Part shown: one piece after another, positions 3,726 through 48,182 of the stretch
How positions within the stretch are numbered: position 1 is the stretch's first letter
Layout: every line of letters starts with the position of its first letter
NCBI GenBank assembly: GCA_021741155.1
Contig: JAIOYP010000002.1
Coordinates: 43,551 to 107,550 of the forward strand
Direction: 5' to 3'
Source of the DNA: Flavobacteriales bacterium
GTDB taxonomy: Bacteria > Bacteroidota > Bacteroidia > UBA10329
DNA length: 64,000 nucleotides
Program-made: the position numbers and the translations under genes
Notes under the pieces: generated by a model
What the model saw: the letters and a program-made list of their open reading frames with translations, nothing else
The model's database searches: none
What the model was told of the DNA's origin: nothing

Positions 3726-3792
3726 GAGGTATGTTTTTGTGATTCGAAAGTAAACAATCCCACATCCATACAATGCTTCTCTCCTCAATCGT

Positions 3793-3815
3793 AGAGACGC
3801 GAATTATCGCGTCTC
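3793..3815. promoter_or_regulatory. perfect 9-bp-stem palindrome immediately upstream of the S8 peptidase start (candidate operator)
   Basis: The sequence gagacgcga-atta-tcgcgtctc was read directly. Confidence 0.25.
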
Positions 3816-4050
3816 CGCAGCACGTGACAAAACGCGACTATAGTCAGCTAGGCACGGTAGTGTTTTGGTCGTGCAGCCTCGAAGGAGGCGCAATCACTCA
3901 ACACGGAGTGCAGCCCCGTGATTCTATGCCCTGCACCAAACCAAGCCCTGAAAGGGCGGAACACATAAACGAGGGGCATCGCCCTTCGCTTATGGCGGTA
4001 TGTGTCGGTAGCCTTGAAGGTGATTGCCTAGCAAATGGCTGGGGGCTTTA

Positions 4051-4198
4051 TTGGCTATAGAAAACAGACCCTTCGTTCCTCAGGGAAGCAAGTAGCGGGC
4101 TCCGCAGCCATCCGTTTGTTTCCCTGAGGAACGAAGGGTCTCTCATTTATTTAGTGAATCACAACTTTTGGGGCTGATTGCCACTTTCTAGGAAATCA
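4051..4198. mobile_element. MITE-like element, copy 1 (148 bp; 19-bp TIRs, internal 21-bp hairpin, imperfect ~10-bp flanking duplication)
   Basis: The TIRs are tgattgcctagcaaatggc and gccactttctaggaaatca. The internal stem is cagacccttcgttcctcaggg ... ccctgaggaacgaagggtctc. The flanks are gccttgaagg and gccttgaaagg. It is about 85-90 % identical to the copy at 8699-8872. Confidence 0.7.
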
Positions 4199-4367
4199 CC
4201 GCCTTGAAAGGGCGATATAGTACTCTGTGGATTTTTGGATGTCGTGTACGTCAATAGCCATCGCGTTCAGATATATACAGTCGTCAACTTTTTGAAAGTT
4301 TGACGGCTGTGAGCATAAACAAGCGGGATTATCCTCTTTTAGCTTCAATTACGACTTAAACCTAGCG

Positions 4368-4472
4368 AGAGGAAGGTTCCTCGGTGCATTGAGAAGGTTC
4401 CTCGGTGGACGGAGAACAATCCTCGGTGCACGGAGAAGGTTCCGTTATGCACGCAGAAGGTTTCTGCACGGA
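4368..4472. repeat. tandem array, 5 x 21 bp (consensus cggagaaggttcctcggtgca), 3' of nadB
   Basis: The units begin at 4368, 4389, 4410, 4431 and 4452, all read directly. Confidence 0.8.
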
Positions 4473-4531
4473 GCATTTCAGCTCTCCCGTGTAGGGTTCA
4501 GAAGGGATTGTTTGAATCTAAAAGCAGACCC

Positions 4532-6055
4532 CTATTCGAGGTCGGAACGGTAAAATCCGCCTACGTTTTTCTTCCTATTTAATGATTGGGTAACGATAAG
4601 CTCTGCCACGATGAGCAGATTTCTGAGCTCCATAAAACCCGTTCCATCCGAAGCGCTGACGGCTCCAAGTACGCTAGACATTCTCTTTATTTCTTGCAGC
4701 GCGTGCTTGAGGCCGAGCTCCGTGCGAATAATGCCCACATGGGTATCCATCAATTCACCCAAATTCTTACGCAATGCGCGCACATCAACCCCTGCGTTAT
4801 GCAGAGATGGAAGCCGCATACTTTCATCGGTAGTGTCGACTACAGCAATATGCTCCGTGGCTAAAAAACAGCGGTGCGCCATTACCAACGCTTCAAGCAG
4901 CGAATTGGATGCCAATCTATTGGCGCCATGCAGCCCCGTGTTGGCACATTCGCCAATGGCATAAAGCCTGCTAATGTTGGTATTTCCATCAAGATCGGTA
5001 TCAATGCCTCCACAACAATAATGAGCCGATGGCCGCACAGGAATGTTGTCTGTTTGAATGGCCAGACCCAACGCTGCACACTTTTGGGAAATAGTAGGAA
5101 AATGCGAACTCAATTCGTTCGGGTCAATCCAGCTGCAATCAAGAAGCACGTGGTCTGATTGTGTTTTCTGCATTTCGTTGAACACGGCTCGCGAAACCAC
5201 ATCACGCGGAGCGAGGTCTGCTTGCTCATCGTAGCTTTTCATGAAATACTCTCCTGCGGTGTTCAACAAGCGCGCACCTGCACCCCGAATGGCTTCAGAA
5301 ATCAAGAACGGCTCTGTCATTTTAGGGTGATAAAGAGCCGTTGGATGAAATTGAATGAACTCCATGTTGCTGATATTCACACCTGCCTGGTGCGCCATGG
5401 CTAGACCATCGCCTGTGGCAATGGATGGGTTGGTGGTAAAACCATAGACCTGCCCACTGCCGCCCGTGGCCAATACCGTTACCGAACTGAGAACCGAATA
5501 ATCGTTTCCGTCAGAATCAATCACCCGTGCGCCTATGCAAACACCATCAGCCATCACGAGGTCATAGGCCATGTGTCCGCTCACAAAATGAACATTCGGC
5601 AGTCCTTGCACCTTTCTCAGCAGTACTTCTGCCAGTTCTAAACCCGTTTGGTCTCCTTTATGAACAACACGGTTTTCGACATGACCGCCCTCACGCCCCA
5701 ACAAGAGTTTGCCATTTTGAGCATCAAACCTCACGCCCCAATCAATTACTTCTTGCACACGTTCGGGGCCTTCGCCAATAATGGTGCGCACCACTTGCTC
5801 ATCGCACAGGCCGTCTCCAGCCTTGAGGGTGTCGTTCACATGCTTTTGAAAGCTGTCTGTTTGCGTATCTGTAACCACGGCAATTCCGCCTTGGGCCATG
5901 CGTGTGTTTGACATGAGTTCTGCACACTTGTTGAGTACAACTACACGTCTTTCTGGAAAAGCTGTTGCCACTTTAATGGCATAGGTCAGCCCAGCCACAC
6001 CAGCGCCAACAACCAAGTAATCTGCCCTCAAGGTTTTGGTTTGTAATCCAAGCAA
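4532..6055 (-). CDS. nadB: L-aspartate oxidase
   Basis: 507 aa. It has an N-terminal FAD-binding motif [12 protein letters not shown] and is of the succinate-DH / fumarate-reductase flavoprotein family, at NadB length. It overlaps nadA by 28 nt in a nadA-nadB operon. Confidence 0.85.
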
Positions 6056-6999
6056 CGTAGCATTGGAATTAAGGCGCGTTTTCTCATTTCCTCATCGAGG
6101 ATAATCTCTGGTTTGTTGTTTTTCAAACAGAGATAGAGCTTTTGCATCGTGTTCATTTTCATGTAGCCACATTCGCTGCACGCGCAGGTATTGTCTGCTA
6201 CAGAAGGTGCAGGAATTAGGGTTTTATGAAGCACGTCCTGCTTCATTCTATGCAGAATTCCCGCTTCGGTGGCCACAATGAATTGGTCGTTCGGGCTGTC
6301 GTTCACATACCGAATCATGGCGGCTGTAGAACCGATAAACGAGGCCGTTTTCAGCACGTGTGCTTCACTTTCTGGATGCGCAATGATGTCGGCATTCGGA
6401 AATTCCTTGTGCAAATCCAACAGTTTATCGATGGAAAATGCTTCGTGCACCATGCAGGCACCTTCCCACAACACCAAATCTCGCCCTGTTTTATCGGCCA
6501 AATAAGCACCCAAGTTCTTGTCGGGTGCAAAAATGATGGGCTGCTCTTTTGGAATGCTATTGATAATCTGCTCGGCATTGGATGACGTGCAGATGATGTC
6601 GCTCATCGCCTTTATTTCGATGGAGCAATTGATGTAGCTGATAACGATATGATTGGGATGTGCATCTAAAAACGCACGGAATTCCGTTGGCGGACAGCTA
6701 TCAGAAAGCGAACATCCAGCCTTCATATCGGGCAACAAAACCGTTTTAGTTGGATTGAGAATCTTGGCAGTTTCGGCCATAAAAAGCACTCCAGCAAATA
6801 CAATTACATCGGCATTTGTGGTGGCGGCCCATCGCGCCAACTCCAAACTATCGCCCACGTAATCGGCAATATCCTGAATGGCGGGCTCCTGATAATAGTG
6901 CGCTAGAATAACCGCATTGCGCTCTTTTCGTAGCGCGTTAATCTTCTCGCTCAGCGAAGTGTTAATCACTGTTTTCTCAATCGTATTCATTGGCCGCAA
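6028..6999 (-). CDS. nadA: quinolinate synthase
   Basis: 323 aa. It is colinear with NadA (AHYYQ near the N-terminus and three conserved Cys-containing segments) and sits directly upstream of nadB. Confidence 0.85.
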
Positions 7000-7120
7000 A
7001 GATTACAACAGATACCACGTGGAAAAATGCCAGTTGTCATTTTTTAGAGATTCTCATTAATGCATATCTGTATGTGTTCCCAAACATCCAGTCCAATTAC
7101 AAATCGGACATGAAAAGGCC

Positions 7121-7204
7121 ACAGATGCACGGATTTCCACTGATTTTCCACAGATAAAAGTAAGTCCATCAGAGAAATCAGTGGAAATCCGTGCATCTGT
7201 GGCT
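7121..7204. terminator. perfect 27-bp-arm inverted repeat between ctaA (3' end) and nadA (5' end)
   Basis: The arms are ccacagatgcacggatttccactgatt ... aatcagtggaaatccgtgcatctgtgg. A related palindrome occurs at 35258-35335. Confidence 0.5.
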
Positions 7205-7270
7205 AAAAACATGTTCTTATTACGTTTCTCAAAACTGACCATTTGGGGAAAGTGGTGGATATGCATTTCC

Positions 7271-8293
7271 TCATTTCTTCATTGGAAGCGCGTGCATCAG
7301 CACCACGCTGCCCGAAAGCAACACCAACGCCCCAAACTGATGAATTACGCCCAATGAAACGGGCACCAGATAAAGCAACGTAAATACACCAAGTGTGAAT
7401 TGTATCAGCACCATTACAACCAAAAGTTGAATGATTTTGTTCTGATAACGGCTCAACGCTTCCTTTCGTGCTGCAAACCACAGATAGCCAACCAATAACA
7501 CCACCACATAGGCAAACGTGCGATGCACGAATTGCACCGAAACAATTTGCGAGAATAGGCTCGAAATACCCCCGCTCTGCAAATCATTCATAACGCTGCT
7601 CGGAATCCAATCGGCACCCATTTTGGGCCAAGATGGGAAGACCAAACCAGCTTTGAGGCCTGCTACAAATGCTCCGAAAATAATCTGTAATGAAACCACC
7701 GCCACCAACACACGTGCAAGAATAGCGGTGCGTTTTGAAGCTAAATCTTGACTCTTGGGCATGTAAATCGAAAGAATGACCCACAGAATGTAGCAGAACG
7801 TGAGGAAGGCCGCACTGAGGTGAATGGCCAGTCGATAATGACTCACACTCGGCCGATCAACCAATCCGCTTTTCACCATAAACCAACCCAAAAAGCCCTG
7901 CAACGCTCCGAGCCCAAACAGCGCAAGGCTCTGAAAAATCAGCTTGCGGTCCATACTTTTTCTCACAAGAAAAATGATGAATGGAATGATGAAGACCATG
8001 CCAATCATCCGACCAATCAAACGGTGCAGATATTCCCAAAAGAAGATGGATTTGAACTCAGAAAGCGTAAAGTGGCTATTCACTTTCTGATATTCTGGAA
8101 ACTGCTGATATTGCTCAAATACTTCATTCCAATCCGCATCATTCAATGGCGGAATGGTTCCCATTATCAGTTTCCATTCGGTGATGGAAAGCCCCGAATG
8201 TGTTAGTCGGGTAATGCCCCCGATAAGCACCATTCCCGCAACCATGATGGCACCTGCGGCCAACCAAAGTATAATCCACTTCCTATCTCTCAC
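7271..8293 (-). CDS. ctaA: heme A synthase (COX15/CtaA family)
   Basis: 340-aa polytopic membrane protein with His-containing TM segments (HRLIGRMIG, HQFGALVLL), colinear with COX15/CtaA. Confidence 0.75.
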   Translation of the reverse strand: MRDRKWIILWLAAGAIMVAGMVLIGGITRLTHSGLSITEWKLIMGTIPPLNDADWNEVFEQYQQFPEYQKVNSHFTLSEFKSIFFWEYLHRLIGRMIGMVFIIPFIIFLVRKSMDRKLIFQSLALFGLGALQGFLGWFMVKSGLVDRPSVSHYRLAIHLSAAFLTFCYILWVILSIYMPKSQDLASKRTAILARVLVAVVSLQIIFGAFVAGLKAGLVFPSWPKMGADWIPSSVMNDLQSGGISSLFSQIVSVQFVHRTFAYVVVLLVGYLWFAARKEALSRYQNKIIQLLVVMVLIQFTLGVFTLLYLVPVSLGVIHQFGALVLLSGSVVLMHALPMKK

Positions 8294-8395
8294 AGGCGCA
8301 AAAGTAGGACTATACTGGATGATGATGAAATATGACGCGAATCATCCTTAATTGGTCGAAAAAATGACGAATATAGCACGACAAAAAATCACGAA

Positions 8396-8695
8396 ATGAA
8401 AAGTCTCAGTAATACCTTTTTAGTTGCTCTCGGTCTTCTGTTAACCGTGGCATTTAGCAGCTGCGAAAAGTGCTACGATTGCACCTTGAAATGCGGCACC
8501 TGCACCAACGGAACGGTAACAGTGGCTGGATGCCAAGGCGACTCCATCCTTCAGGGTCAATCAGTTGACGCTTGGAAGGCATACTTTGAGTCACAAGGAT
8601 ATTCTTGTGCTTACAACAACACAACGCAAGAAGCCTGCGGCAAGGAAAACAAAGACGAGCTTTCGGATTTGCACTACGAATGCCTGACCAACTAA
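8396..8695 (+). CDS. small Cys-rich lipoprotein, hypothetical
   Basis: 99 aa with a lipobox LTVAFSSC and then about ten Cys residues. Its stop codon lies inside the target-site duplication of MITE copy 2. Confidence 0.5.
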   Translation: MKSLSNTFLVALGLLLTVAFSSCEKCYDCTLKCGTCTNGTVTVAGCQGDSILQGQSVDAWKAYFESQGYSCAYNNTTQEACGKENKDELSDLHYECLTN

Positions 8696-8698
8696 GGT

Positions 8699-8872
8699 GA
8701 ATTGCCTAGCAAATGGCTCAGTGCCTAATTGCTATAGAAAACAGACCCTTCGTTCCTCAGGGAAACAAACGGATATGGAAGAGCCAGCTAGTTGCTTCCC
8801 TGAGGAACGAAGGGTCTCACATCTGTTCCGTGAGCAATACTTTGAGGCTGATTGCCACTTTCTAGGCAATTC
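8699..8872. mobile_element. MITE-like element, copy 2 (174 bp) with a perfect 10-bp TSD, caactaaggt
   Basis: The TIRs are gaattgcctagcaaatggc (8699-8717) and gccactttctaggcaattc (8854-8872). The internal 21-bp hairpin is the same as in copy 1. The direct repeat caactaaggt lies at 8689-8698 and again at 8873-8882. Confidence 0.8.
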
Positions 8873-8979
8873 CAACTAAGGTCAGAGTTTGTCATAATTA
8901 TGATATACGTCATAAACTGGCGTATGCGCTGCGAGTAATTTCAAAGGCTCAATCTGTTTCTCACACAATTTCAAGAACG

Positions 8980-9876
8980 GTGCAGCCTCTGATATTTGAC
9001 ATACAGCGTTTTTCCATTCACGATGGAGCAGGAATTCGTAGTGTTGTGTTCTTTAAAGGATGCAACCTCAATTGTCCGTGGTGTCAAAATCCCGAGTCAA
9101 TGGATCATCGGCCTGAGATTGCCTTTTATGCTGAAAAATGCACGAAGAATGCCGATTGCGTTGAGGTTTGTCCTGTAAATGCCATCATCATTGGTTCCAA
9201 AACACACATAGACCGCGAACTGTGCAATCGCTGCGGCAAATGCACCGAAGCGTGTGTTACTGGTGCGTTAAAAAAGATTGGAAACGTCTATTCGGTTGAT
9301 GAAGTGATGCACCAATTGCTCAAAGACAAACCTTACTACGAAACATCGGGCGGTGGTGTAACTTTTTCGGGCGGAGAACCGAGCCTGCATGCAGACTTCA
9401 TTCTTGAAGTGCTGAAAGAATGCAAGAAGCATGATATTCACACGAATATCGAAACCAACGGTTACTTCAACTGGGAAAAATTCAAACCACTTCTCCCGTA
9501 TTTAGATCAGATATACTTCGATTTGAAAATTGTTGATCAGAAACGGAACAAAGATCTGCTAGGTGGCGATAGCCAACGCATTCTATCCAACATGGATCTT
9601 TTAATTGAGCACAACGCTCCAGTCGAATTCCGTATTCCGCTTATTCCAGGTCATACCACAGATGATGAGAACCTGAAATCGTTGGTCAGGGTGCTGAAGG
9701 AGAAAGGAATTTCAAAGATTCATCTTTTGCCATACCACAGCATGGGCGAAGCAAAAGCAGAACGCATTTGCAGTCCGCTCATTGATTTGAACCAAAAACC
9801 ATTCGATACAGAACAATTGAATGGCTTTCAACACATGTTTGAAAGCGAACACATTGAAACAGAACTTTATAGATAG
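8980..9876 (+). CDS. glycyl-radical-enzyme activating enzyme (radical SAM, with two extra ferredoxin-like clusters)
   Basis: It has an N-terminal CNLNCPWC (C-x3-C-x2-C) motif and the typical IHDGAGIRSVVFFKGC segment. Two further Cys clusters follow (CTKNADCVEVCP and CNRCGKCTEAC), as in non-PFL GRE activases. There is a 6-nt gap to the GRE gene. The start codon is probably GTG. Confidence 0.85.
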   Translation: MQPLIFDIQRFSIHDGAGIRSVVFFKGCNLNCPWCQNPESMDHRPEIAFYAEKCTKNADCVEVCPVNAIIIGSKTHIDRELCNRCGKCTEACVTGALKKIGNVYSVDEVMHQLLKDKPYYETSGGGVTFSGGEPSLHADFILEVLKECKKHDIHTNIETNGYFNWEKFKPLLPYLDQIYFDLKIVDQKRNKDLLGGDSQRILSNMDLLIEHNAPVEFRIPLIPGHTTDDENLKSLVRVLKEKGISKIHLLPYHSMGEAKAERICSPLIDLNQKPFDTEQLNGFQHMFESEHIETELYR

Positions 9877-9882
9877 AACGTC

Positions 9883-12267
9883 ATGGAAACTACCGCAAAG
9901 GCCACTGCCACCATCATCAGCCCACGGCTCAATCGTCTAAAGGAGAAGGTGCTTAATTATCCACCATCCATCTGTCCCGAAAGAGCGCTTCTAGTAACCA
10001 AGTATTTTAAGCAGAAGGAGAACGGTAAGAAGCCGATGGTCATACAAAAGGCCGAAGCATTGGCCTACATTCTTGACCAAAAAACGGTACGCATTTACGA
10101 GGATGAGTTAATTGTGGGAACAACCACGTCTAAGCGTGTAGCTGGGCCGATTTTCCCTGAATTGCACGGCCTACCCGTAATGGAAGACTTGTTCAGCTTT
10201 TCGGACAGAAAGATTAATCCACTAAAAATTCACAAGCACGAAAAGACCAAATTACTGACCGAAGTTGTTCCTTTCTGGCTCACGCGATTTTTGGGCTACA
10301 AGGCCATGAACGGGTTGGATCTAATCAAGTTTGTGACCGACCAACTTAATCCGAAATTCTATCTCATCAACGAAACAGGCGGTATCGGTCACCTCATTCC
10401 AGATCATGAAAGAGTGCTGGAACGCGGATTGGATGGCATCAAAGAAGACATTAGAGTTAAGCTGAATGAAGCAGGATTAAGCGAATCTGCACGGAACCAA
10501 TATGAAGCCATGATTATTTCGTGTGATGGCATCATCAATTACGCTCACAAGTACGCAGAAAAGGCCGAGGGACTGGCGAAAACGGAAAATGACCCAGGCC
10601 GAAAAGCCGAATTGTTGACAATTGCAAAAAACCTAAAACACGCTCCGCAAAAACCTGCCGAGACATTTCATCAAGCAATACAGGTGGTGTGGCTCATGCA
10701 TACGGCCGTTTTTATTGAGGGATTGGATAACGGAATCAGCTTTGGAAGAATGGATCAATACCTGTATCCATTTTACAGAAGAGATCTGATAAATGGTACG
10801 ATTACAAAGGACAAAGCAAAAGAACTGATTGGCTGTCTGGGCATCAAAAGCTCAGAGATTATTCCCGTTTTCAGTTCCAAGATAAGCGAATGCCATGGAG
10901 GTTTCCTGAGTGGACAAGCCATCACTTTGGCCGGAACGGATGAGGAAGGAAACGACCTTACCAACGAACTGACTTTTATGATGCTCGAACTGATGGATGA
11001 GGTTCGTCTGCGCCAACCAAATTACCATGCACGAATTCATGATGGTTCGCCCAAGCCTTACATCGACAAGATTATGTCCAACCTTGTAAAAGGCGTTAAT
11101 TCTCCCGCGCTTTACAACGACAAGGTGATTATCAGCTCACTTAAAAAAGCTGGTTATTCAGATGCTGATTCAAACGCCTACGCCACCTTGGGTTGTGTGG
11201 AGTTGCTTTCGGCAGGAAAAACGTTTGGCTCTACCGATGCGGCTTTGGTCAACATTCCTATTTGTCTAGAAATGGCCCTCAACGAAGGCCGACTCTTCGG
11301 GGATCTGATGCGAAAAGGAACAGAAACGAAGCCTGTTGATGATTTCAAGAATATTGATGAGGTGAAAGCCGCATTCAAAACACAGCTTCAGTTCGTCATT
11401 GACCGTTTGGTGAAAGTGCTGGAGCCGATTGAAATTGCTAATCGTGATTTTCATCCAACGCCTCTCACATCTGTGGTAACACAAGGCTGTATTGAAAGCG
11501 GAAAAGACGTTACTTCTGGTGGCGCCATCTATAATTTCAGTGGTGTTCAAGGAGTAGGCGTTACCGATGTTGGAGATAGTTTGTATGCCATCGACCAATT
11601 GGTTTTCCAAAAGAAAAAAATCAAACTTTCTGAATTGGTCAACGCACTAAAAACCAATTTCAAAGGGAAAGAGAAACTCAGAATGGAACTTCATAATCTC
11701 CCGAAATTCGGGAACGATATGGAAGATGTGGATGCCTTGAGCCGTTGGGTAACGGACACGTATTACGATTCATTCAACGGAAAAATGAACACCCGTGGCG
11801 GCAAGTTTGTGGCAGGATTCTATTCCACCACAACCCATTACAGTTTCGGAAAAATGACTGGCGCGTTGCCAAATGGAAGAGAAAAAGGAGAGCCGTTCAG
11901 CTCTGGCATTGCACCCATGAACGGGGCAGATGTGCTTGGCCCAACCGCCATGTTCAATTCCATTACTGCTCTCGATTTTGAACGAGCGCACAATGGAGTA
12001 AACGTAAACGCCAAGTTTGATACCGCCACGCTGAAAGGAGAACATGGAAAAATGATTTTGGAAAGCCTATTGCTTACCTATTTCAAGAAAGGTGGCATGC
12101 AAGTGCAATTAAATGTATTGGATACGGAAATGCTGAAAGACGCGAAAATTCATCCCGAAAAATATCCCAATCTACTTGTTCGGGTTTCGGGTTATTCGGC
12201 CTATTTCAATGACCTTTCTCCAGCCATGAAAGATGAGATTATTAACCGAAGTTGTTTGAATACTTAA
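9883..12267 (+). CDS. glycyl radical enzyme, C-x-E (dehydratase/eliminase) class of the PFL2/GDH/HypD/CutC type; substrate unknown
   Basis: 794 aa. The C-terminal glycyl radical fingerprint LLVRVSGYSAYFNDL is present. The active-site loop TLGCVELL has a single Cys with Glu at +2, whereas PFL has two adjacent Cys. The length matches glycerol dehydratase and HypD. Confidence 0.85.
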   Translation: METTAKATATIISPRLNRLKEKVLNYPPSICPERALLVTKYFKQKENGKKPMVIQKAEALAYILDQKTVRIYEDELIVGTTTSKRVAGPIFPELHGLPVMEDLFSFSDRKINPLKIHKHEKTKLLTEVVPFWLTRFLGYKAMNGLDLIKFVTDQLNPKFYLINETGGIGHLIPDHERVLERGLDGIKEDIRVKLNEAGLSESARNQYEAMIISCDGIINYAHKYAEKAEGLAKTENDPGRKAELLTIAKNLKHAPQKPAETFHQAIQVVWLMHTAVFIEGLDNGISFGRMDQYLYPFYRRDLINGTITKDKAKELIGCLGIKSSEIIPVFSSKISECHGGFLSGQAITLAGTDEEGNDLTNELTFMMLELMDEVRLRQPNYHARIHDGSPKPYIDKIMSNLVKGVNSPALYNDKVIISSLKKAGYSDADSNAYATLGCVELLSAGKTFGSTDAALVNIPICLEMALNEGRLFGDLMRKGTETKPVDDFKNIDEVKAAFKTQLQFVIDRLVKVLEPIEIANRDFHPTPLTSVVTQGCIESGKDVTSGGAIYNFSGVQGVGVTDVGDSLYAIDQLVFQKKKIKLSELVNALKTNFKGKEKLRMELHNLPKFGNDMEDVDALSRWVTDTYYDSFNGKMNTRGGKFVAGFYSTTTHYSFGKMTGALPNGREKGEPFSSGIAPMNGADVLGPTAMFNSITALDFERAHNGVNVNAKFDTATLKGEHGKMILESLLLTYFKKGGMQVQLNVLDTEMLKDAKIHPEKYPNLLVRVSGYSAYFNDLSPAMKDEIINRSCLNT

Positions 12268-12273
12268 GATAAT

Positions 12274-12726
12274 ATGGAAAAGACCGATACTGCAATTTGG
12301 GATTTTATTGCCAACACAGATGTGTTCACGTTGGCCACCTGCCACCGTGGAAAACCATATTGCTGCTCTTGCTTTTACACCTTCGATCGTGAAGGGAAGC
12401 GCCTGATATTCAAATCTGAAACAGGAACACGCCACGTGACCGAACTATTGCTTCAACCACAGATTGCAGGCAGCATTCTTCCCAAAAGTCTTGCAATTGG
12501 AAAAGTGAAAGGCATTCAGTTTACTGGTCAAGCACTTCCGTTGCAGGAAACAGAAGATTATGATAGAACGAAGAAACTCTATTACAAGCAATTTCCTATT
12601 GCCCTAACCATGGGCGGACAGCTTTGGGCAGTAGAGTTGGAGACAATTAAAATGACCGATCATACGCTCGGATTCGGCAATAAACTGCGCTGGGAAAGGG
12701 CTCAATTGAGCACAAAAATGAACTAA
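12274..12726 (+). CDS. pyridoxamine-5'-phosphate-oxidase-like (split-barrel, FMN-binding) protein
   Basis: 150 aa with the pattern DVFTLATCHRGKPYCCSCFYTFD, typical of the PNPOx/general-stress-protein-26 fold. It starts 7 nt after the GRE stop, which suggests an operon. Confidence 0.5.
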   Translation: MEKTDTAIWDFIANTDVFTLATCHRGKPYCCSCFYTFDREGKRLIFKSETGTRHVTELLLQPQIAGSILPKSLAIGKVKGIQFTGQALPLQETEDYDRTKKLYYKQFPIALTMGGQLWAVELETIKMTDHTLGFGNKLRWERAQLSTKMN

Positions 12727-13745
12727 AACGGGCTTGAAAGCGAAGTATCGTTCACAAACTCCCAATCTGTTAGTGTTTTAAGGAAGGCCACCAGATTCTG
12801 CTTCTCCTCTTCGGTAAGTTGAAGTCCGTATTCCTTGCCTGGTTTGGTCATTATGGGGTCAATAGTCATGGAGCGTTTTACCTGACTATTATAGTGTTCT
12901 ACAACTTCTTCGAGCGTAACGAACCGCCCATCGTGCATGTAAGGTGAGGTCAACTCCACATTTCGTAAGGTGGGCGTTTTGAATTTTAAACGGTCGTACG
13001 GACTTCCGCTAATGTAACTGCGATCCTTAACGGTCGGGTCATAAATACTGTCGAGCCCAATATTGTGAAACTCATTATTCGTCATCAATGGAATTCCATG
13101 GCAATGGAAACAATCTCCTTTTTCGGTAAAAAAAGTAGTCATACCATTCAACTCACTGTCCGTCAATTGTTCTTCCCCTTTTAGATAACTGTCAAATTTG
13201 CTATTGCTAGACTTTAAACGTCTGAACCATTGGGCCAATGCTTTTGCCACCAACTCATCGGTAATCTCGCAAGAGCCAAAGGCCTTTCGGAACAATTCGG
13301 GATAAACAGCATCCTCTTTTAGAAGATTAAAATCCACTTCAAAAAAGTCGTTTACTTCAAACAGCATCACGTCTTCCAAGATTCCTTCCAGCTTTCCATT
13401 CCACAAAAAGTTACGACTCCACGCAAGGTTTACATGCGGGAGCACAGACGAACCGCTTGCTGTTGATGGAACCGAAAAAGAATTACTCTGAAAATGACAA
13501 GAGGAGCATGAGCGCCCTTCACGCGGGCCGCCTGTAGAAAGCAATGGATCGTAATACAATCTCCTGCCAAGTTGAACTCCTTCTTCTGTTAGCGGATTAT
13601 CAGAAGGAACTTCTAGAATGGGGAAATAATCAGGAAATTGTAGTTGGTAAGGATGTGTATTTGCCTCACATTCGTCCACTTCCTCTTTACAGGATGAGGC
13701 AGAAATCGCCAAAAGCACCAATAAGAACCAAACCGAGCGTGTCAT
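12723..13745 (-). CDS. di-heme cytochrome c peroxidase / MauG-family protein (MbnH-like)
   Basis: Two CxxCH motifs (CSSCH and CFHCH), a lipoprotein signal LAISASSC and CCP/MauG-like length. Confidence 0.8.
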   Translation of the reverse strand: MTRSVWFLLVLLAISASSCKEEVDECEANTHPYQLQFPDYFPILEVPSDNPLTEEGVQLGRRLYYDPLLSTGGPREGRSCSSCHFQSNSFSVPSTASGSSVLPHVNLAWSRNFLWNGKLEGILEDVMLFEVNDFFEVDFNLLKEDAVYPELFRKAFGSCEITDELVAKALAQWFRRLKSSNSKFDSYLKGEEQLTDSELNGMTTFFTEKGDCFHCHGIPLMTNNEFHNIGLDSIYDPTVKDRSYISGSPYDRLKFKTPTLRNVELTSPYMHDGRFVTLEEVVEHYNSQVKRSMTIDPIMTKPGKEYGLQLTEEEKQNLVAFLKTLTDWEFVNDTSLSSPF

Positions 13746-14455
13746 GGCGTTTGTTCTAAAGTGAAGGCGTTGTTTATATTGGCGCTTATCTCCAACATGG
13801 CTGGCATGATACCCATGGTATAATTGCTGCTGTCCATGTCGAATGTGTTGGGACCTGTCATGATTTCGTTCAGGTTGAATCCAATGGTCATGCTGCCATC
13901 TTCCGAAATATCAAAAGGGGTTGAGATTGAAACATCGGCCAAACATTCGTTATTCCCCACATGAATGGCATAGCCGTTTACACCTTGATTTGAATTAAAA
14001 TAACCTTCAAATTTCATAAAGTGATACCCTCCGCCCATCTGTTCGGGCCAAACCATACCCGTATTGTATGATGTATTGGGAAGATTACCGTAAACGTTCT
14101 GACTCTGTGGTATTCCGAAGTTAAAACGCAATTCCTTAAAACTACCGACAGGAACTTTGGGTAGATTCAAAATGGTTCCTTCCCGAGCATCAATGAAATG
14201 AGCATCGCCATCAGCCGTAACTACAGAATTGTCTGCCTTTACAAATCGAAAATTGGATAGATAGTACCGCAACTTATTCACACTGTAGGGATTGCCAGCG
14301 GCATTTTGATAGATGATGGTATCGAGCATCAGCTCATCTCCATCAACATGGTAGTGTGGGGTAATGGTAAGGTTGTAGGTCAGCGCTTCCTCTTTGCAGC
14401 TATTCAAAAGAACAGTGTTCAAGGCCAAAAGAAGTACAAATGCAAGTTTTCTCAT
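13742..14455 (-). CDS. lipoprotein partner of the di-heme peroxidase (possible MbnP-family protein)
   Basis: The signal and lipobox are MRKLAFVLLLALNTVLLNSC. It overlaps the peroxidase gene start by 4 nt. The gene order (partner first, then peroxidase) and the size resemble mbnP-mbnH pairs. The family assignment is by context, not by motif. Confidence 0.45.
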   Translation of the reverse strand: MRKLAFVLLLALNTVLLNSCKEEALTYNLTITPHYHVDGDELMLDTIIYQNAAGNPYSVNKLRYYLSNFRFVKADNSVVTADGDAHFIDAREGTILNLPKVPVGSFKELRFNFGIPQSQNVYGNLPNTSYNTGMVWPEQMGGGYHFMKFEGYFNSNQGVNGYAIHVGNNECLADVSISTPFDISEDGSMTIGFNLNEIMTGPNTFDMDSSNYTMGIMPAMLEISANINNAFTLEQTP

Positions 14456-14496
14456 CCCAATTGAATTTGAGTTCAATTACGGATGAAAGCAAACTG

Positions 14497-14534
14497 CCGA
14501 TCATGACTTACATCATGGTCGGCAGTTTATTTTC
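14497..14534. terminator. 16-bp-stem hairpin downstream of nrdJ
   Basis: The arms are aaactgccgatcatga-ctta-catcatggtcggcagttt, with one mismatch. Confidence 0.5.
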
Positions 14535-14551
14535 AAATATGAATTATATGC

Positions 14552-17134
14552 TTATCCGCACTTGCTATGCCCGCAGCTTTTGCACTTGAGGCAACCTTCT
14601 TCATAAATCAATCCATCAGGATCGTTACATGATGGGCATTTGTGATCAGCTTTTGTTCCGTTAGGAATGTAACGCTTCAGTGTTCGTTCAACCCCGTTTT
14701 TCCATGTGTTGATGTTCTCATCAAACAGGTTCAATCTCGACACAAGATTAACCACATACGGCAACGGCATTCCATGACGCAATACACCAGAAATTAGCTT
14801 CGCATAATTCCAGAATTCCTTATCGAAACTGCGCGAAAGTCCTTCGATAGTTACACGATAGCCGTCCTTATCCACATACTGGAAATCGTAACGGGCATTG
14901 CCATCATCATCTCGGTCTTTGATGATCCAACCTTTTTCTGCCCACGTTGGAAGATGAAACGCTTCTTCGGTTTTTCCAGTGAAAACCTCATAAGGTTTGC
15001 CATCCAGCAATCCAACTACTGCAATCCACTTTTCCTTCTCATTTTGGAATCGGACAATCTCAGCTTCTAGTTTCTTTGGTCTTCTTGGCGGACGCGTTTC
15101 CAAAATGGTTTCCAGCGTTGCCGCATCCTTCTTGTCATCATTTGATATGAGCACTCCCGAACGTGAACCATCTCGATAAACCGTAATTCCCTTCACGCCT
15201 TGCTGCCACGCTTTCAAATAAATCTCGCCTACCTTTTCCTGACTTACATCTTCAGGCAAATTGATGGTAGAACTGATGGAATGGGTCACATACTTCTGAA
15301 CCATCGCTTGCAATTTTACGCGCTGCATCCAGTCAATTTCAGGAGCGGTTGAACCGATGTACGGATTGCCGGCATCATTTTTCTTTCCGTTCACGGTCAT
15401 CCACGTTTTTAGCTTCGGATGATACACGGTGAACTCCTCCCAACGATCGCCCATTTCATCAACAAATGAAACATTGGCTTCCGGTGTGCTGTGCATGATT
15501 TTTCTTCTTCTCGTATAACTGGTGAGAAAAACAGGTTCTATACCTGAAGATGATTGCGCCAACATGCTGAGCGTTCCAGTAGGAGCTACTGTACTGATGG
15601 AAATATTTCTTCGTCCATGTTGCATCATGCGCTCATACACATTCGGAAAATCCTGCTTCAGCATTTGCACGAACTCCGAAGTGTTCTCAATTTCTGGATT
15701 GAAATCTTTGAATTTTCCTCGTTCGATGGCCATATCAATAGAACACTGGAACTCAGCATCGCACTTTGTACGCATCATTTTCTCCATTTCGACTAGGGCT
15801 TCATCGCTATCGAATTTTAACCCGAGTGCAGCAGCAGTATCGGCCAAGGCTGTAAATCCAAGACCAGTTCTTCGACCATTCTTTCCAGCATTGTAGAGTA
15901 ACTCCCACGTTTCAACCTCCACCTGCTTCACTTTGTCTGGTTCAGGGTCACTTTTAACCTTAGCCAAAATTCGGTCGATGGCTTCCAGTTCAAGATCCAC
16001 CAAATCATCCATCAAACGTTGCGACTCATAAGTCGTTTTCCAGAATTTCTTGTGGTTGAAACTTGCTTGTGGCGTAAATGGATTTTCTACAAATGAATAC
16101 AGATTGATGGCAATCAGTCGGCAACTATCTCCGCCTTGCATGGCAATTTCTGAGCACGGATTGGTGCTTGTATTCTTAAATCCAGGATAAACCGATGATG
16201 TTGAATAATAATGCTGACGATCCCAGAAAATAAGACCGGGTTCCGCTGTATTGTGCGCGCACTGAATAATGGTGTTCCACAATTCGCGTGCATTCACCTT
16301 CTTCGTGATTTTTGGCTCTTTACTCTCAACTGGCCAACGATGCATAAAATCTTTGTTGTCTCGAACGGCTTTCATGAATTCGTCCGAAATACGAACCGAG
16401 ATATTGGCACCTGTTACCTTCGAAAGGTCTTGCTTGCTGGTAACGAAATCCTCCACATCGGGATGAGCAATGTCCATGGTAATCATCAAGGCACCGCGTC
16501 TTCCATTCTGAGAAACTTCGCGCGTTGTATTTGAGAAACGCTCCATAAATGAAACCGCGCCAGACGTGCTACCAGCTGCATTATTTACCCGCAATCCAGC
16601 AGGGCGAATGGTAGATAAATCAATACCTACACCGCAACGCCTTTTAAAGAGTTGCACCAATTGCTGGTCGGTGTACATAATGCCACCGTAACTATCGTGA
16701 ATTTCAGGAATAACTACGCAGTTGCTCAACGAAGCAAGCACATGCGTATTACCTAGAGAAGACATCACACTTCCTTGTGGAATGACATATTTGAAATCTC
16801 GAAAAAGATTGTAAATCTCATCTTCCGTCATTGGATGCCGCTGCTGACCATATTCAGAAAGCAGTGCTGTTTTTGCGCCTAAATCAGCAGATGAACCATT
16901 TTTTTGTTCGATGCGAGCAAACTCGCGAGCCATACGCTTGTGCATATCGTCTGGCGAGGTTTCCAAGTACTTGCCGTCCGTATCGGTCATGGCATACTTG
17001 TTAATCCAAGTGGTGGCCGCCAACTCGTCTCCATCAAAGTAGCTTAAACACTTCTTCAATACTTCCTGATAAGGGAAGGTTGGTGTTCTTGTTAATGTGT
17101 CAATTGTGGGTTTCGGTGTCTTCTTGTTGGCCAT
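14552..17134 (-). CDS. nrdJ: ribonucleoside-diphosphate reductase, probably adenosylcobalamin-dependent class II (NrdJ type)
   Basis: 860 aa. The RNR active-site motif STNPCSEI is present. There is a C-terminal four-Cys tail (CPSCNDPDGLIYEEGCLKCKSC). No adjacent nrdB small-subunit gene is present. Confidence 0.65.
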   Translation of the reverse strand: MANKKTPKPTIDTLTRTPTFPYQEVLKKCLSYFDGDELAATTWINKYAMTDTDGKYLETSPDDMHKRMAREFARIEQKNGSSADLGAKTALLSEYGQQRHPMTEDEIYNLFRDFKYVIPQGSVMSSLGNTHVLASLSNCVVIPEIHDSYGGIMYTDQQLVQLFKRRCGVGIDLSTIRPAGLRVNNAAGSTSGAVSFMERFSNTTREVSQNGRRGALMITMDIAHPDVEDFVTSKQDLSKVTGANISVRISDEFMKAVRDNKDFMHRWPVESKEPKITKKVNARELWNTIIQCAHNTAEPGLIFWDRQHYYSTSSVYPGFKNTSTNPCSEIAMQGGDSCRLIAINLYSFVENPFTPQASFNHKKFWKTTYESQRLMDDLVDLELEAIDRILAKVKSDPEPDKVKQVEVETWELLYNAGKNGRRTGLGFTALADTAAALGLKFDSDEALVEMEKMMRTKCDAEFQCSIDMAIERGKFKDFNPEIENTSEFVQMLKQDFPNVYERMMQHGRRNISISTVAPTGTLSMLAQSSSGIEPVFLTSYTRRRKIMHSTPEANVSFVDEMGDRWEEFTVYHPKLKTWMTVNGKKNDAGNPYIGSTAPEIDWMQRVKLQAMVQKYVTHSISSTINLPEDVSQEKVGEIYLKAWQQGVKGITVYRDGSRSGVLISNDDKKDAATLETILETRPPRRPKKLEAEIVRFQNEKEKWIAVVGLLDGKPYEVFTGKTEEAFHLPTWAEKGWIIKDRDDDGNARYDFQYVDKDGYRVTIEGLSRSFDKEFWNYAKLISGVLRHGMPLPYVVNLVSRLNLFDENINTWKNGVERTLKRYIPNGTKADHKCPSCNDPDGLIYEEGCLKCKSCGHSKCG

Positions 17135-23805: not shown

Positions 23806-23828
23806 TTAGTGAGACCTTTCGTTCCTCA
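23806..23828. repeat. fragment of the MITE internal stem (gagacctttcgttcctcaggg)
   Basis: It matches the 21-bp stem of the MITE family and lies in the intergenic spacer between two adhesin genes. Confidence 0.5.
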
Positions 23829-23900
23829 GGGTTACAACCTGGGAATCCCCGCGTTTTCCCATGCCTCTTGTCCCTTGTCTCTTGTCTCTCGCCCCTTCAA

Positions 23901-34276: not shown

Positions 34277-35101
34277 TTATTTGACCAACAATTTCTTAAT
34301 GGTCGATTTTCCGTCCACTTCAATTTGCAAGAAATATACACCTGTGTTCAGGCTTCTAGATTTCACATCAATCTTAATGTTGCCACCATCATGCTTTTCC
34401 TCAAGCACTTTCCGTCCCTGCACGTCAAACATCGTAATCAGCATCTTCTCGTCAACATCTCTCGCAGCCACATGAATTTCATCTATTACTGGGTTCGGAT
34501 AAACCGAAATATCAGCAAGGTCAGATTCTGCTATTCCAACACCTAATTCACCTACAGTAAGCGAACCAGAAACCACCACATCATCACTTGTACCACCACC
34601 ATTATCAGTAAAATTTCCAGCATAATAAACACCAACGGCCCCTGTTCCAGAGACTGGAGCAATCCACTGAAAATTCCAAGTTTTTATTCCTCCAATAACC
34701 GAAGTTCCGCTAAACGTATGGGTGATGTACTTGGAACCGAGTATCTGTGTTCCTGTTCCAGCGATAAGTGTTCCCAATTCGTTCCCAGAATTATCCTGTG
34801 CAGAAAGTTGAAATCCGAACTTCTCACCTCCAGACTTGGTCATTGTAAACATAATGTTGTATGTCTCGCCACCAACATATCCAGTAGGTGGAATATCTGA
34901 TGAGACATCTATCTCCTCGGTGGTTACCGCAGGACCACCAGAATGGCAACCCAATGTTGCGCACGTCTGACCATCAGACGGAGATCCCGTGTTTCCCATG
35001 GGTGCTCCCGAACTGTTTGTGTGAGCCATTCTAAAATTGTAATCATAAACCAATCCGGCCATCAGCAATAATGACAATACGAGAGCGAATTTTTTCTTCA
35101 T
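34277..35101 (-). CDS. secreted protein with a T9SS type-A C-terminal sorting domain
   Basis: It has a signal peptide. The C-terminus is ISVYPNPVIDEIHVAAR ... GVYFLQIEVDGKSTIKKLLVK. Confidence 0.65.
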   Translation of the reverse strand: MKKKFALVLSLLLMAGLVYDYNFRMAHTNSSGAPMGNTGSPSDGQTCATLGCHSGGPAVTTEEIDVSSDIPPTGYVGGETYNIMFTMTKSGGEKFGFQLSAQDNSGNELGTLIAGTGTQILGSKYITHTFSGTSVIGGIKTWNFQWIAPVSGTGAVGVYYAGNFTDNGGGTSDDVVVSGSLTVGELGVGIAESDLADISVYPNPVIDEIHVAARDVDEKMLITMFDVQGRKVLEEKHDGGNIKIDVKSRSLNTGVYFLQIEVDGKSTIKKLLVK

Positions 35102-35257
35102 GATTATGGTAGTAATTGTGCGCTAAAATTAAGACCGTCTTTGGATATGTAATTGTCTTACTCGCAACTTCATCAAAGGTTCAATGGTAGCACAGATAGG
35201 AAATATGGTTGCTTTCGGGGCAATCGGATCTTAATCAAGGTGAAAAACATGCTTTAG

Positions 35258-35335
35258 CCACAGAGACACAGATTTGCATAGAAAGACCACTGATTATCTG
35301 TGAAAAATCCGTGAAAATCTGTGAATCCGTGGCTA
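35258..35335. repeat. palindromic element related to the 7121-7204 hairpin
   Basis: The sequence gccacagagacacagattt ... aaatctgtgaatccgtggc shares the ccactgatt / ccgtg / atctgtg motifs with the 7.1-kb element. Confidence 0.4.
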
Positions 35336-35435
35336 TTTCATGTCAGCTACTTAAGACCCAATTACCTTGATGGTCTTAAAGAATTCAGATTTTCCCAAAT
35401 GGCTTTTCATAAATTTGGCCTCCCAACGAAAAACA

Positions 35436-48099: not shown

Positions 48100-48175
48100 A
48101 ACCGAGACCCTTCCTTCGTCAGGGAAACAAATGAGGTAAACTGATGTAGGCCACTTACTTTGCTGCCTAGGAAGC
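48100..48175. repeat. deleted derivative of the MITE (first stem plus right TIR)
   Basis: The sequence is gagacccttccttcgtcaggg ... gccacttactttgctgcctaggaag. Confidence 0.45.
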
Positions 48176-48182
48176 GTCTCAG

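Follow-up and report, generated by a model that had tools for sequence, protein, structure and literature searches.

Two copies of a repeat element in the window

The window is the whole 64,000-nucleotide stretch of Flavobacteriales DNA that was analyzed, and it contains two full copies of a short repeat element. Copy 1 lies 3' of a minus-strand nadA-nadB pair, and not upstream of nadBA as a preliminary description had it, and it lies on the upstream side of an S8 peptidase gene. Copy 2 is intergenic: it directly follows a stop codon, and a GRE-activase gene lies about 100 nt further downstream. The stop codon is that of a 99-aa ORF at 8396-8695. The features are as follows.

4011..4018: left target duplication of copy 1, GCCTTGAA; identical over all 8 bp to 4201-4208 if the termini are GG...CC
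4019..4200, + strand: element copy 1, 182 nt; TIR shell with a nested REP dimer; ends GGTGATTGCCTAG...CTAGGAAATCACC
4019..4039 (start 4019/4020), + strand: left TIR of copy 1, GGTGATTGCCTAGCAAATGGC
4066..4142, + strand: nested head-to-head REP dimer of copy 1; CCGTTTGTTT-tagged unit on the + strand; arms 4066-4091 and 4116-4141
4180..4200, - strand: right TIR of copy 1, reverse complement GGTGATTTCCTAGAAAGTGGC
4201..4208: right target duplication of copy 1, GCCTTGAA
8688..8698: left duplicated block of copy 2, CCAACTAAGGT; the 99-aa ORF ends within it (TAA)
8699..8872, + strand: element copy 2, 174 nt by the limits first given; tips ambiguous by up to 3 nt
8699-8717 and 8854-8872: TIRs of copy 2, GAATTGCCTAGCAAATGGC and GCCACTTTCTAGGCAATTC; 17/19 positions match
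8743..8818, - strand: nested head-to-head REP dimer of copy 2, inverted relative to that of copy 1
8872..8882: right duplicated block of copy 2, CCAACTAAGGT; the initial C doubles as the final element base under the limits first given
23809..23838 (in the site 23806-23838), - strand: solo REP-like unit, not an element remnant; TTGTAACCCTGAGGAACGAAAGGTCTCAC on the - strand; no TIR
48104..48180: degenerate head-to-head REP dimer, not an element remnant; left arm of GAC..GGA type, right arm of decayed CGCT type; no TIR

Copy 2 was found as first described, including the perfect direct repeat CAACTAAGGT at 8689-8698 and 8873-8882 that holds the upstream stop codon; the full repeated block is 11 nt. 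Copy 1 is also real, with the same ends and the same stem, but its earlier limits (4051-4198) left out the left TIR at 4019/4020-4039, and the copy spans about 4019-4200. Its flanking duplication had been called imperfect; with the termini GGTGATT...AATCACC, all 8 bp of it match.

Aligned over their length, the two copies share 83% identity, and the inner stems (AGACCCTTCGTTCCTCAGGG / CCCTGAGGAACGAAGGGTCT) are exact in both. Both recur far more often than chance would give. The TIR 18-mer, with up to three mismatches, had 4 matches compared to 0.05 expected; the stem 20-mer had 6 compared to 0.01, and for each, none of 100 shuffles gave as many. The 35- to 36-nt segment between the stem arms is inverted between the copies, the dimer loop of copy 2 scoring 19 against that of copy 1 as the reverse complement and 1 in the same orientation. 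Fold prediction gave a single long hairpin for copy 1 as DNA (-47.3 kcal/mol, z = -7.3) and -93.6 kcal/mol (z = -9.0) for copy 2 with its flanks as RNA. Transcribed into RNA, the element would form a single long and very stable hairpin in the intergenic space.

Empty site and copies in other genomes

The preliminary description had proposed a search of relatives for further copies and empty-site alleles, and both were found. A close relative, L240 (GCA_018057745.1), has the exact empty site for copy 2 (...GAATGCTTGACCAACTAAGGTCAGAGTTTGTC...), with one CAACTAAGGT and one copy of the block CCAACTAAGGT that is duplicated around copy 2 in the window. L240 is colinear with the window on either side of this point, and the GRE activases of the two share 96% protein identity. 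Because a close relative has this exact empty site, copy 2 is a true insertion. The empty-site evidence comprises this one site (copy 2 only, L240); at the copy 1 site, synteny was broken in every relative fetched, and about 42 kb of relatives' DNA contained no element copy. Both full copies are genuine mobile-DNA insertions, as had been proposed.

Copy 2 had also been suggested as a promoter donor to the GRE operon. The conserved upstream box of that operon lies downstream of copy 2 and is unchanged in L240; since L240 lacks the element, the element is dispensable as the GRE operon promoter.

Related copies are present in other Flavobacteriales MAGs and in metagenomes, and these copies adjoin unrelated genes. 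Copies bounded by these TIRs, each with a duplication of its own, were found in L104 (= L156; TCCTTTGT), L212 and L224 (ACGAAGGA), L041 + L106 (CTTTGCAG), L219 (TCTCAAGA), L174, L167, and L103 from Roseivirga (TTTGTCAAA), which has no REP inside.

Termini and insertion targets

A 10-bp duplication had been taken as the length for the family. The repeat stands at copy 2, but the best-fitting reading across the family is termini of GGTRATT...AATYACC with an 8-bp duplication. Of 12 ends, 11 have G just outside GTRATT and one has A; in every case, this base is complementary to the one at the opposite end. In copy 1, L104, and L212, it is exactly the two outermost positions that mismatch under the 10-bp reading, and the 8-bp reading has no mismatch. 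Copy 2 does not fit the 8-bp model neatly. GG...CC tips would give it a 6-bp duplication, and therefore a 2-nt change at the GGGG junction must be assumed. The 10- to 11-nt repeat at copy 2 is the longest reading that its sequence permits. A duplication of 8 bp instead of 10 bp alters which transposase families are plausible partners.

The targets themselves are inverted repeats: CTGACC-AACTAA-GGTCAG, CCCCTCC-TTTGCA-GGAGGGG, CCTTTG-T-CAAAGG, CTCT-CA-AGAG, and the REP unit CCCTGAC-GAA-GGAAGGG. In L104, L212, L224, and probably L012, the insertion occupies the apical portion of a REP unit. Judged on about 10 sites and without a formal null model, insertions appear to favor the tips of hairpins, REP units included. 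Insertion into REP hairpins is also a property of the REP-targeting insertion sequences IS1397, ISKpn1, and ISPpu9/10 (Tobes and Pareja 2006, PMC1525189). Unlike those, the inserter here is a MITE with an 8-bp duplication, and non-REP hairpins are targeted as well.

The internal hairpin is an independent REP-like dimer

The 21-bp internal hairpin had been described as a feature of the element. Its stems are indeed shared exactly by both copies, but the hairpin is a REP-like dimer that exists independently of the element in which it is nested and is very widespread; of 35 head-to-head dimers in the fetched DNA, only about 6 are flanked by element TIRs. The unit of about 27 nt, TGTC-A-NNNN-GA-G-GAA-C-GA-N'N'N'N'-T-CTC, forms a hairpin with a covarying 4- to 5-bp stem, two tandem G·A pairs, a G-C or C-G closing pair, and a GAA triloop; two such units, head to head, make up the internal hairpin. 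The tag reads TGTT or TGCT in the window copies. Among units collected without use of pairing, 85.6% of cells were paired, compared to 66% in shuffles and 23 to 45% with partners slid. There were 54 double-sided changes (0/500 shuffles had as many), and 22 sequences had GC as the closing pair, compared to 12 with CG.

A metagenome scan placed the unit's 20-mer at no fewer than 120 loci (at least 120), in contigs of 36 to 68% GC; in high-GC contigs, the units often lie directly after stop codons. The dimer span is constant at 68 to 70 nt, and the dimer occurs in either orientation within otherwise colinear TIR shells. Two sites at 23806-23828 and 48100-48175, previously read as deleted derivatives of the element, have no TIR and are the solo unit and the degenerate dimer listed above. 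The solo unit has an orthologue of consensus sequence at the same position in L158 and L220 (83 to 86% identical here).

REPs tagged CGTC/TGTC have been reported from Gramella forsetii among the Bacteroidetes and from several further phyla, and their description in the paper by Di Nocera, De Gregorio, and Rocco (2013, PMC3733652) names no dedicated transposase. Our unit appears to resemble them as there described, having an unpaired TGTC tag, a stem often opening with an A-T pair, a 3-nt tail, and a predominance of head-to-head dimers. Compared with that description, it differs in its 8-position stem with two tandem G·A mismatches, a loop of 3 nt (GAA) instead of 4 to 5, and a tail of CTC/CTG instead of CCA. 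To the extent of that account, the REP component has already been described in print. REPINs, in which two inverted REPs and a spacer form a jointly dispersed hairpin of about 70 to 80 nt (Bertels and Rainey 2011, PMC3116915), likewise pair inverted REPs around a spacer, and the constant dimer span here is a further likeness. Our dimer differs in having no GTAG tag and no apparent RAYT link and, unlike lineage-specific REPINs, in the presence of an identical 20-mer in contigs of such different GC content. The window copies are a tidy nested example of ordinary bacterial repeat DNA.

How the composite may move

We favor, with a probability of roughly 0.78, the reading that the full copies are non-autonomous, cut-and-paste-type MITEs that carry the REP dimer as a passenger and are served by a transposase in trans. 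A MITE of about 155 to 250 nt with TIRs of about 20 to 24 bp (5'-GGTRATTKCCTAGMAARTGGC...-3') would be inserted by such a transposase with a staggered cut, most likely of 8 bp, preferentially at the tip of short intergenic inverted repeats, such as terminator-like hairpins just past stops and REP units. Its center would be the head-to-head dimer of an independent REP-like unit. The two arms are inverted repeats of nearly identical sequence, so that the intervening segment could flip, by recombination or template switching, and both dimer orientations would result. We infer this flipping, the 8-bp stagger, and a DDE-type mechanism.

In being short, non-coding, TIR-bounded, flanked by a target duplication, present in multiple intergenic copies, folded as a single long hairpin, and present or absent between close relatives, the element is like the bacterial MITEs covered by the paper of Di Nocera et al., e.g., Correia/NEMIS of Neisseria, Nezha of cyanobacteria, RUP, and ERIC (PMC3733652). 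The TIR (GGTRATTKCCTAG...), the flipping nested REP dimer core, and the apparent preference for hairpin tips set it apart from those listed.

No transposase was found within the copies, as noted previously, or among the window ORFs checked (51 long ORFs, most read by eye). The autonomous element with matching TIRs that the preliminary description hoped for was not found either; the only lead is at L111 6047-6184, where a TIR is followed by 21 codons at the contig end, and this fragment had no match by tblastn, word search, plasmid BLAST, or Pfam. Our guess, from the 8-bp duplication, the GGTRAT tips, and this one ORF fragment, is an IS1/IS1595-like partner.

It is unlikely that the TIR shell is instead a palindromic target entered by REP dimers, with the dimer alone being mobile. 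REP dimers do occur without the shell, L103 has a shell without a REP, and the dimer is found in either orientation. Moreover, section 7 of the Di Nocera paper has REP dimers regularly embedded in longer palindromes, as in Anabaena variabilis GTAG-15 and Halothiobacillus neapolitanus CGTC-1, whose outer palindromes it reads as insertion targets (PMC3733652). Like these, ours is a REP dimer centered in a longer inverted repeat and repeated in the genome; unlike these, for which that section reports no duplication or empty site, the composite is shown to insert whole, flanked by a duplication. Shell and dimer are both missing from the empty site, the duplication flanks the shell and not the dimer, and no direct repeat surrounds the dimers within shells. 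It may well be that the REP entered the shell a single time, but the whole composite is what moved into the copy 2 site.

We consider it quite improbable that the 180-nt unit is REPIN/BIME-like and that a Y1 HUH transposase (RAYT-/TIRYT-type) moves it in single-stranded form, the outer repeats being an extra palindrome layer. Y1 HUH transposition (IS200/IS605, REP systems) is known to leave no target duplication, while one of 8 to 10 bp is present at every well-preserved copy and is confirmed by the empty site at one. The form of the element, one long hairpin with a REP doublet as its core, would suit such an enzyme, Bacteroidetes encode TnpA_REPs of subclasses 2.4 and 2.6, with atypical flanking structures (PMC6006769), and TIR-associated tyrosine transposases appear in the account by Di Nocera et al. 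(PMC3733652). However, scanning all DNA gathered for the HUH...Y[IV]xxNP motif returned a single RAYT-like ORF, which is in L067 and has none of these REPs in its vicinity.

A non-mobile conserved structured RNA gene or cis-regulatory RNA (terminator, attenuator, or processing site) would suit the very stable predicted fold, the position of copy 2 between a stop codon and the GRE-activase gene, and the REP units often found just past stop codons in high-GC contigs, but it is highly improbable given no Rfam family at gathering or relaxed thresholds, an orthologous L240 spacer that keeps the operon's upstream box and lacks the element, and other copies beside unrelated genes. The effect on the host is most likely neutral or selfish.

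Both full copies combine a MITE shell with a nested REP dimer

The features discussed here lie at these window positions.
4019-4200: copy 1, 182 nt, with its left terminal inverted repeat (TIR) at 4019/4020-4039
8396-8695: 99-aa ORF next to copy 2
8689-8698 and 8873-8882: direct repeat flanking copy 2, CAACTAAGGT
8699-8872: copy 2, 174 nt
8699-8717: left TIR of copy 2, GAATTGCCTAGCAAATGGC
8854-8872: right TIR of copy 2, GCCACTTTCTAGGCAATTC
8897-8915: palindromic box 3' of copy 2, TATGATATACGTCATAA
23809-23838: solo REP unit
48104-48180: decayed head-to-head REP dimer

Both full copies hold up as mobile, non-coding elements. Each is a composite of a MITE shell, the part bounded by the TIRs, and a nested, invertible head-to-head dimer of a ~27-nt REP-like hairpin (the REP unit). 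The preliminary description was largely right about the anatomy, but it merged two kinds of element into one, miscalled two REP loci and probably made the target-site duplication (TSD) too long. At copy 2, we confirmed the TIRs and the perfect 10-bp flanking repeat, whose block extends to 11 nt (CCAACTAAGGT), and the stop codon of the upstream gene is indeed in the left repeat, as the TAA of the 99-aa ORF. Copy 1 has the same ends, as had been proposed; however, its left TIR lies at 4019/4020-4039, so the element spans approximately 4019-4200 and not 4051-4198. The two copies align at 83% identity, and both are under the MITE ceiling of ~500 bp. The TIRs are complementary at 17/19 to 18/21 positions. 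A TIR 18-mer had four matches at no more than 3 mismatches (0.05 expected) and a stem 20-mer had six (0.01 expected), counts that no shuffle reached. The sole ORF within the copies is a 60-aa GTG frame at 8697-8879, and copy 1 shares sequence with only the tail of a 95-aa ORF, for which Pfam gave no match. The shell is an ordinary MITE on all testable criteria but the missing partner.

Copy 2 has an exact empty site in a close relative

The window has a GC content of 44.6% and comes from a Bacteroidota genome, and one of its genes encodes an S8 peptidase with a T9SS sorting tail. Flavobacteriales MAGs are the closest relatives. Searching for homologues of the activase of the glycyl-radical enzyme (GRE) returned a 96%-identical partial protein on a contig of GCA_018057745.1 (locus L240), where the gene order is syntenic: nadB, nadA, COX15, beta-eliminating lyase, small ORF and activase. 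Over the insertion point, this contig reads GAATGCTTGACCAACTAAGGTCAGAGTTTGTC, a single duplicated block with the element absent and both flanks colinear with the window. This is an exact empty site for copy 2, the empty-site allele that the preliminary description had proposed to look for, and copy 2 is a real insertion. It also means that a TIR-bounded shell with its REP dimer can move as one unit, an arrangement that prior surveys saw only as REP dimers inside longer palindromes. No empty site for copy 1 was present in the relatives examined, each of which has another neighbor upstream of the S8 peptidase gene; homology to them there ends at window position 3759. A possible empty/filled pair at ~35100-35370 and locus L224, upstream of an acyl-CoA dehydrogenase gene, was too diverged to use. 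Neither the 298-aa activase nor the product of the 99-aa ORF had a record in exact-protein look-ups.

Both copies had been placed directly upstream of operons. This holds for copy 2, which follows the 99-aa ORF and precedes the genes for the GRE activase and the GRE. Copy 1, in contrast, has the start of the S8 peptidase gene on one side and the stop of nadB on the other, both genes being on the minus strand, and is therefore downstream of nadA-nadB. Copy 2 had also been proposed as a possible donor of a promoter or terminator. The palindromic box TATGATATACGTCATAA upstream of the activase, a candidate CRP/FNR-type operator for this anaerobic operon, lies 3' of copy 2 and is retained at ~4368-4386 in L240, where the element is absent, so the operon is independent of the element for that signal. 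A similar box occurs in locus L238.

The element recurs in other Flavobacteriales

A genome scan and a later metagenome scan gave the TIR-bounded copies listed below. The same TIRs bound at least 8 copies besides the window pair, and copies occur in at least 3 Flavobacteriales MAGs as well as in metagenome contigs. When the loci from the genome scan were searched by BLAST with the element, true relatives came from Flavobacteriales MAGs only.

Copies of the element outside the window
L104 (= L156): TIR-bounded copy
L167: TIR-bounded copy, with a second element abutting
L174: TIR-bounded copy, 154 nt
L212 and L224: TIR-bounded copies, 252 nt, with an extra REP unit
L041 and L106: two ends of one variant, at contig ends
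L219: TIR-bounded copy
L103: Roseivirga pacifica; interior without this REP
L012: partial copy

A degenerate TIR 17-mer scan of species-representative genomes gave mostly chance matches. Five of them, in Desulfosediminicola flagellatus (L003, L007, L046, L060 and L115), belong to an unrelated multicopy repeat of ~1.9-2 kb, with inverted repeats containing CTAGGAGGCTGTCCGA and the same flanks at five chromosomal places, which includes the TIR-like 17-mer by chance. Viral contigs had no match for the stem or the TIR (a looser TIR pattern gave 3, by chance), and plasmid BLAST of the element gave no match.

The target-site duplication is probably 8 bp

We tested boundary shifts for each element. 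With the termini set as GGTRATT...AATYACC, five elements have a perfect 8-bp duplication.

Perfect 8-bp duplications
Copy 1: GCCTTGAA
L104: TCCTTTGT
L212: ACGAAGGA
L041/L106: CTTTGCAG
L219: TCTCAAGA

In copy 1, L104 and L212, the 10-bp reading breaks precisely at its two outer positions. Of 12 ends, 11 carry a G outermost, and L103 has an A; in every case this base is complementary to the one at the opposite end, which makes it part of the TIR. With GG...CC tips, copy 2 would have a TSD of 6 bp despite its 11-nt block; an assumed 2-nt contraction of the GGGG junction would bring it to 8 bp. We take 8 bp as the probable value for the family. The 10-bp repeat in the preliminary description stands for copy 2, where it is the longest reading, but not as the family value.

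Judging from about 10 reconstructed sites, the element would have inserted mostly into the apical part of inverted repeats.

Reconstructed insertion targets
Copy 2: hairpin tip CTGACC-AACTAA-GGTCAG, stop codon included
GCCTT-GA-AAGGGC
CCCCTCC-TTTGCA-GGAGGGG
CTCT-CA-AGAG; the end of contig L111 has the same flank
CCTTTG-T-CAAAGG
L104, L212, L224 and probably L012: a REP unit, CCCTGAC-GAA-GGAAGGG
L167 and L174: T-runs after terminator-like hairpins

REP hairpins are known targets of some insertion sequences (PMC1525189).

The internal hairpin is a distinct and widespread REP unit

A metagenome scan with CCCTGAGGAACGAAGGGTCT gave at least 120 loci. Among the matches listed, 60 loci have a GC content below 45% and 47 have one of at least 55%, with a maximum of 68%. 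The conserved unit is directional, TGTC-A-NNNN-GA-G-GAA-C-GA-N'N'N'N'-T-CTC. Among the matches listed, 103 of 255 units have the tag “tgtca” before the stem, with variants cgtca and tgtcg, and the tag is TGTT or TGCT in the arms of the window elements. Counting both G·A pairs, the stem has 8 positions, and 19 of 36 units open it with an A-T pair. The 3-nt loop reads GAA, GCA or GTA, and the tail is CTC, CTG or CCG.

For covariation, units were re-collected by the tag and the GA/GA letters alone, with the seed 20-mer excluded. In the 5-bp stem and closing pair, 85.6% of cells were paired, compared to 66% in shuffles and 23-45% with slid partners; there were 54 double-sided changes, a number that none of 500 shuffles attained. 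Twenty-two units close with a G-C pair and 12 with C-G.

Among the matches listed, 65 units are in head-to-head dimers versus 28 in tail-to-tail ones. The 35 head-to-head dimers in the DNA examined span mostly 68-70 nt, a minority 53 nt, and GGTRATT TIRs surround only ~6 of them. Dimers of constant span dominate in low-GC contigs; solo units are often directly after stop codons in high-GC contigs; head-to-tail arrays occur in L122, L221 and L237. The two arms of a dimer may differ in stem (L129, L135, L141 and L174), so each arm is a unit by itself. The internal hairpin is an element distinct from the shell. A lineage-restricted MITE and a far more widespread REP-like hairpin, two layers that the preliminary description had merged, can now be told apart.

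The arrays in L122 (12300-13400), L221 and L237 have two alternating repeated intervening sequences and adjoin an IS3-family OrfA. In high-GC contigs (L119, L125, L136, L144, L192, L201, L206 and others), a second hairpin, GTCC...(35-45 nt)...AATCGGGAC, typically comes after the REP unit, which suggests that the repeat of these organisms is a larger composite.

The preliminary description had named a conserved structured RNA gene as a reading that would undo the element. No Rfam family covers the elements or the REP units: the window gave no gathering-level match, relaxing E up to 10 gave microRNA-like hairpin noise alone over the elements, and the REP units in 10 loci gave nothing. A hammerhead or other self-cleaving ribozyme, to which the CUGANGA...GAA-like letters of the unit could point, was rejected for lack of a three-way junction, since the flanks just pair, and of an Rfam match. 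Same-strand matches in L122 and L135 might be read as a CRISPR array, but the “spacers” are themselves repeated (two alternating, with periods of 59 nt and 92-99 nt).

The putative deleted copies are REP loci and the dimer occurs in both orientations

Two deleted derivatives had been reported at 23806-23828 and 48100-48175. Both turned out to be REP loci without a TIR. The first, at 23809-23838, is a solo unit, which persists at the orthologous place in L158 and L220 (83-86% identity to the window over 2.5-3 kb). The second, at 48104-48180, is a decayed head-to-head dimer, with a GAC..GGA-type arm, a spacer and a CGCT-type arm carrying a small deletion.

We oriented the shells by TIR polarity (CTAGCAAATGGC left, CTAGAAAGTGGC right). 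The inter-arm segments then fell into two groups, with copy 1 and L167 in one and the reverse complement in copy 2, L104 and L174; L219 leans, more weakly, to the copy 2 group. Alignment scores were 17-27 in the matching orientation versus -2 to 4 in the other. The shell sequences do not divide along these groups. Repeated inversion between the near-identical 26-bp arms would be the simplest reading of both orientations; excision and re-insertion of the dimer is an alternative that would also give them.

A partner transposase is sought among DDE and REP-associated types

No transposase occurred among those window ORFs that were run through Pfam; most of the 51 long ORFs were read by eye only. 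The suggested search for an autonomous element with matching TIRs yielded none in the loci examined: when all loci were scanned for inverted repeats with an IS-like spacing of 600-3500 bp, none had such termini. There was one truncated lead. At 6047-6070, L111 matches the right TIR over 24 nt; different sequence follows, with an ATG and 21 codons (MDLIETGRRFNDETTCIRHLE), before the contig ends (6047-6184 overall). The peptide may resemble a zinc-ribbon start. The 21-aa fragment, a short and X-padded query, gave no candidates by tblastn or word search and no Pfam match, and the contig end had no plasmid BLAST match.

IS1 and IS1595-type elements make 8-9-bp target duplications, have GGTGAT or GGTAAT tips and encode a DDE transposase with an N-terminal zinc ribbon. 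An Escherichia coli IS1A copy has tips GGTGATG and GGTAATG and the duplication GATTTTTG. The probable 8-bp duplication and the GGTRAT tips of our element are reminiscent of IS1. The repeats are unrelated past 6 nt (5-10 of 24 positions identical), so the resemblance is just a lead.

As for REP-associated types, TnpA_REP subclasses specific to Bacteroidetes have been described (PMC6006769, Quentin et al.). The inverted doublet, constant spacer and hairpin resemble a REPIN, but the GTAG tag is lacking, and no single-copy RAYT flanked by these REPs was found in the DNA examined. In all of this DNA, an HUH/RAYT motif scan picked up a single RAYT-like ORF, in L067, and it has none of these REPs in its vicinity.

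Among known repeats, the unit is close to the CGTC-tagged REPs of Di Nocera et al. (PMC3733652). A full-text literature search for the REP sequence turned up nothing of relevance. In the CGTC-tagged REPs, the tag is often TGTC, the stems are 8-9 bp with an A-T start, the loops are 4-5 nt and the tails are 3 nt (CCA). The same paper describes predominant head-to-head dimers, occurrence in five phyla including Bacteroidetes (Gramella forsetii), two species in which dimers are regularly embedded in longer palindromes, and no dedicated transposase (PMC3733652). Compared with that description, the tag, 3-nt tail and head-to-head habit are common to our unit, whereas the G·A pairs, 3-nt loop and CTC tail set it apart.

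Our joint reading, to which we give a probability of roughly 15% and which we thus consider unlikely as it stands, has two parts. A DDE-type mini-transposon would carry the REP dimer as cargo, preferentially into hairpin tips, including REP units, so that the dimer spreads by hitch-hiking. Separately, a conserved host or mobile-element protein would read the hairpin, keeping the unit constant where descent alone would not. We propose such a structure-reading protein because an identical 20-mer hairpin with tandem G·A pairs occurs in contigs of 36-68% GC among the matches listed. If hitch-hiking is true, MITE and REP would make landing pads for each other, giving REP clusters, and there would be a testable route of REP spread in phyla without a known REP transposase.

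Assembly breaks, neighboring repeats and islands

A Logan contig (run SRR12088350) is 100% identical to window positions 8793-14725 and begins within the copy 2 hairpin, as expected if the element is repeated. Since the elements break short-read assemblies in this way, mark a breakpoint of synteny in the window and leave very stable hairpins in intergenic DNA, they should be recognized when Flavobacteriales MAGs are annotated.

The synteny break covers 3760-4532 relative to L244, L245, L246, L248 and L250. In all five of these relatives, a Peptidase_M19 or H+-PPase gene precedes the S8 peptidase gene, and nadB is there in the window alone. The 770-nt junction is filled by copy 1, hairpins and a tandem array at 4357-4458, which separates copy 1 from the nadB stop and consists of 4-5 repeats of a 21-nt unit (TCCTCGGTGCAYNGAGAAGGT-like). 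To the left of copy 1, at 3944-3988 on the minus strand, two hairpins give an Acido-Lenti-1 near-match (29.2 bits; gathering threshold, 37). Between COX15 and the 99-aa ORF, relatives have a beta-eliminating lyase gene of ~460-470 aa (L238, 3735-5153; L240, 2646-4028). The window has only ~100 nt there (8294-8395) and thus lost, or never gained, this gene.

Another small palindromic family is represented by a perfect 29-bp inverted repeat, GCCACAGATGCACGGATTTCCACTGATTT, with a 28-nt loop (7118-7203, between nadA and COX15), and by a decayed relative at 35253-35330, upstream of the acyl-CoA dehydrogenase gene. A second tandem array, three 42-nt units, lies at 60851-60995. A 149-nt direct repeat (95% identity; 61039-61187 and 63155-63303) brackets one Schlafen/AlbA_2-domain gene (61266-63128), and a truncated leuS-like ORF (63148-63864) overlaps the second repeat copy with its 3' end; the pair of repeats looks like an att-type duplication from a small integrated island. 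Adjoining the REP dimer at 48104-48180, the cluster at 42220-47993 encodes a DnaB_C/KaiC-like ATPase, a WYL-WCX regulator, a PDDEXK_4 nuclease and an ATPase_2+DUF234 protein and looks like a defense or mobile island.
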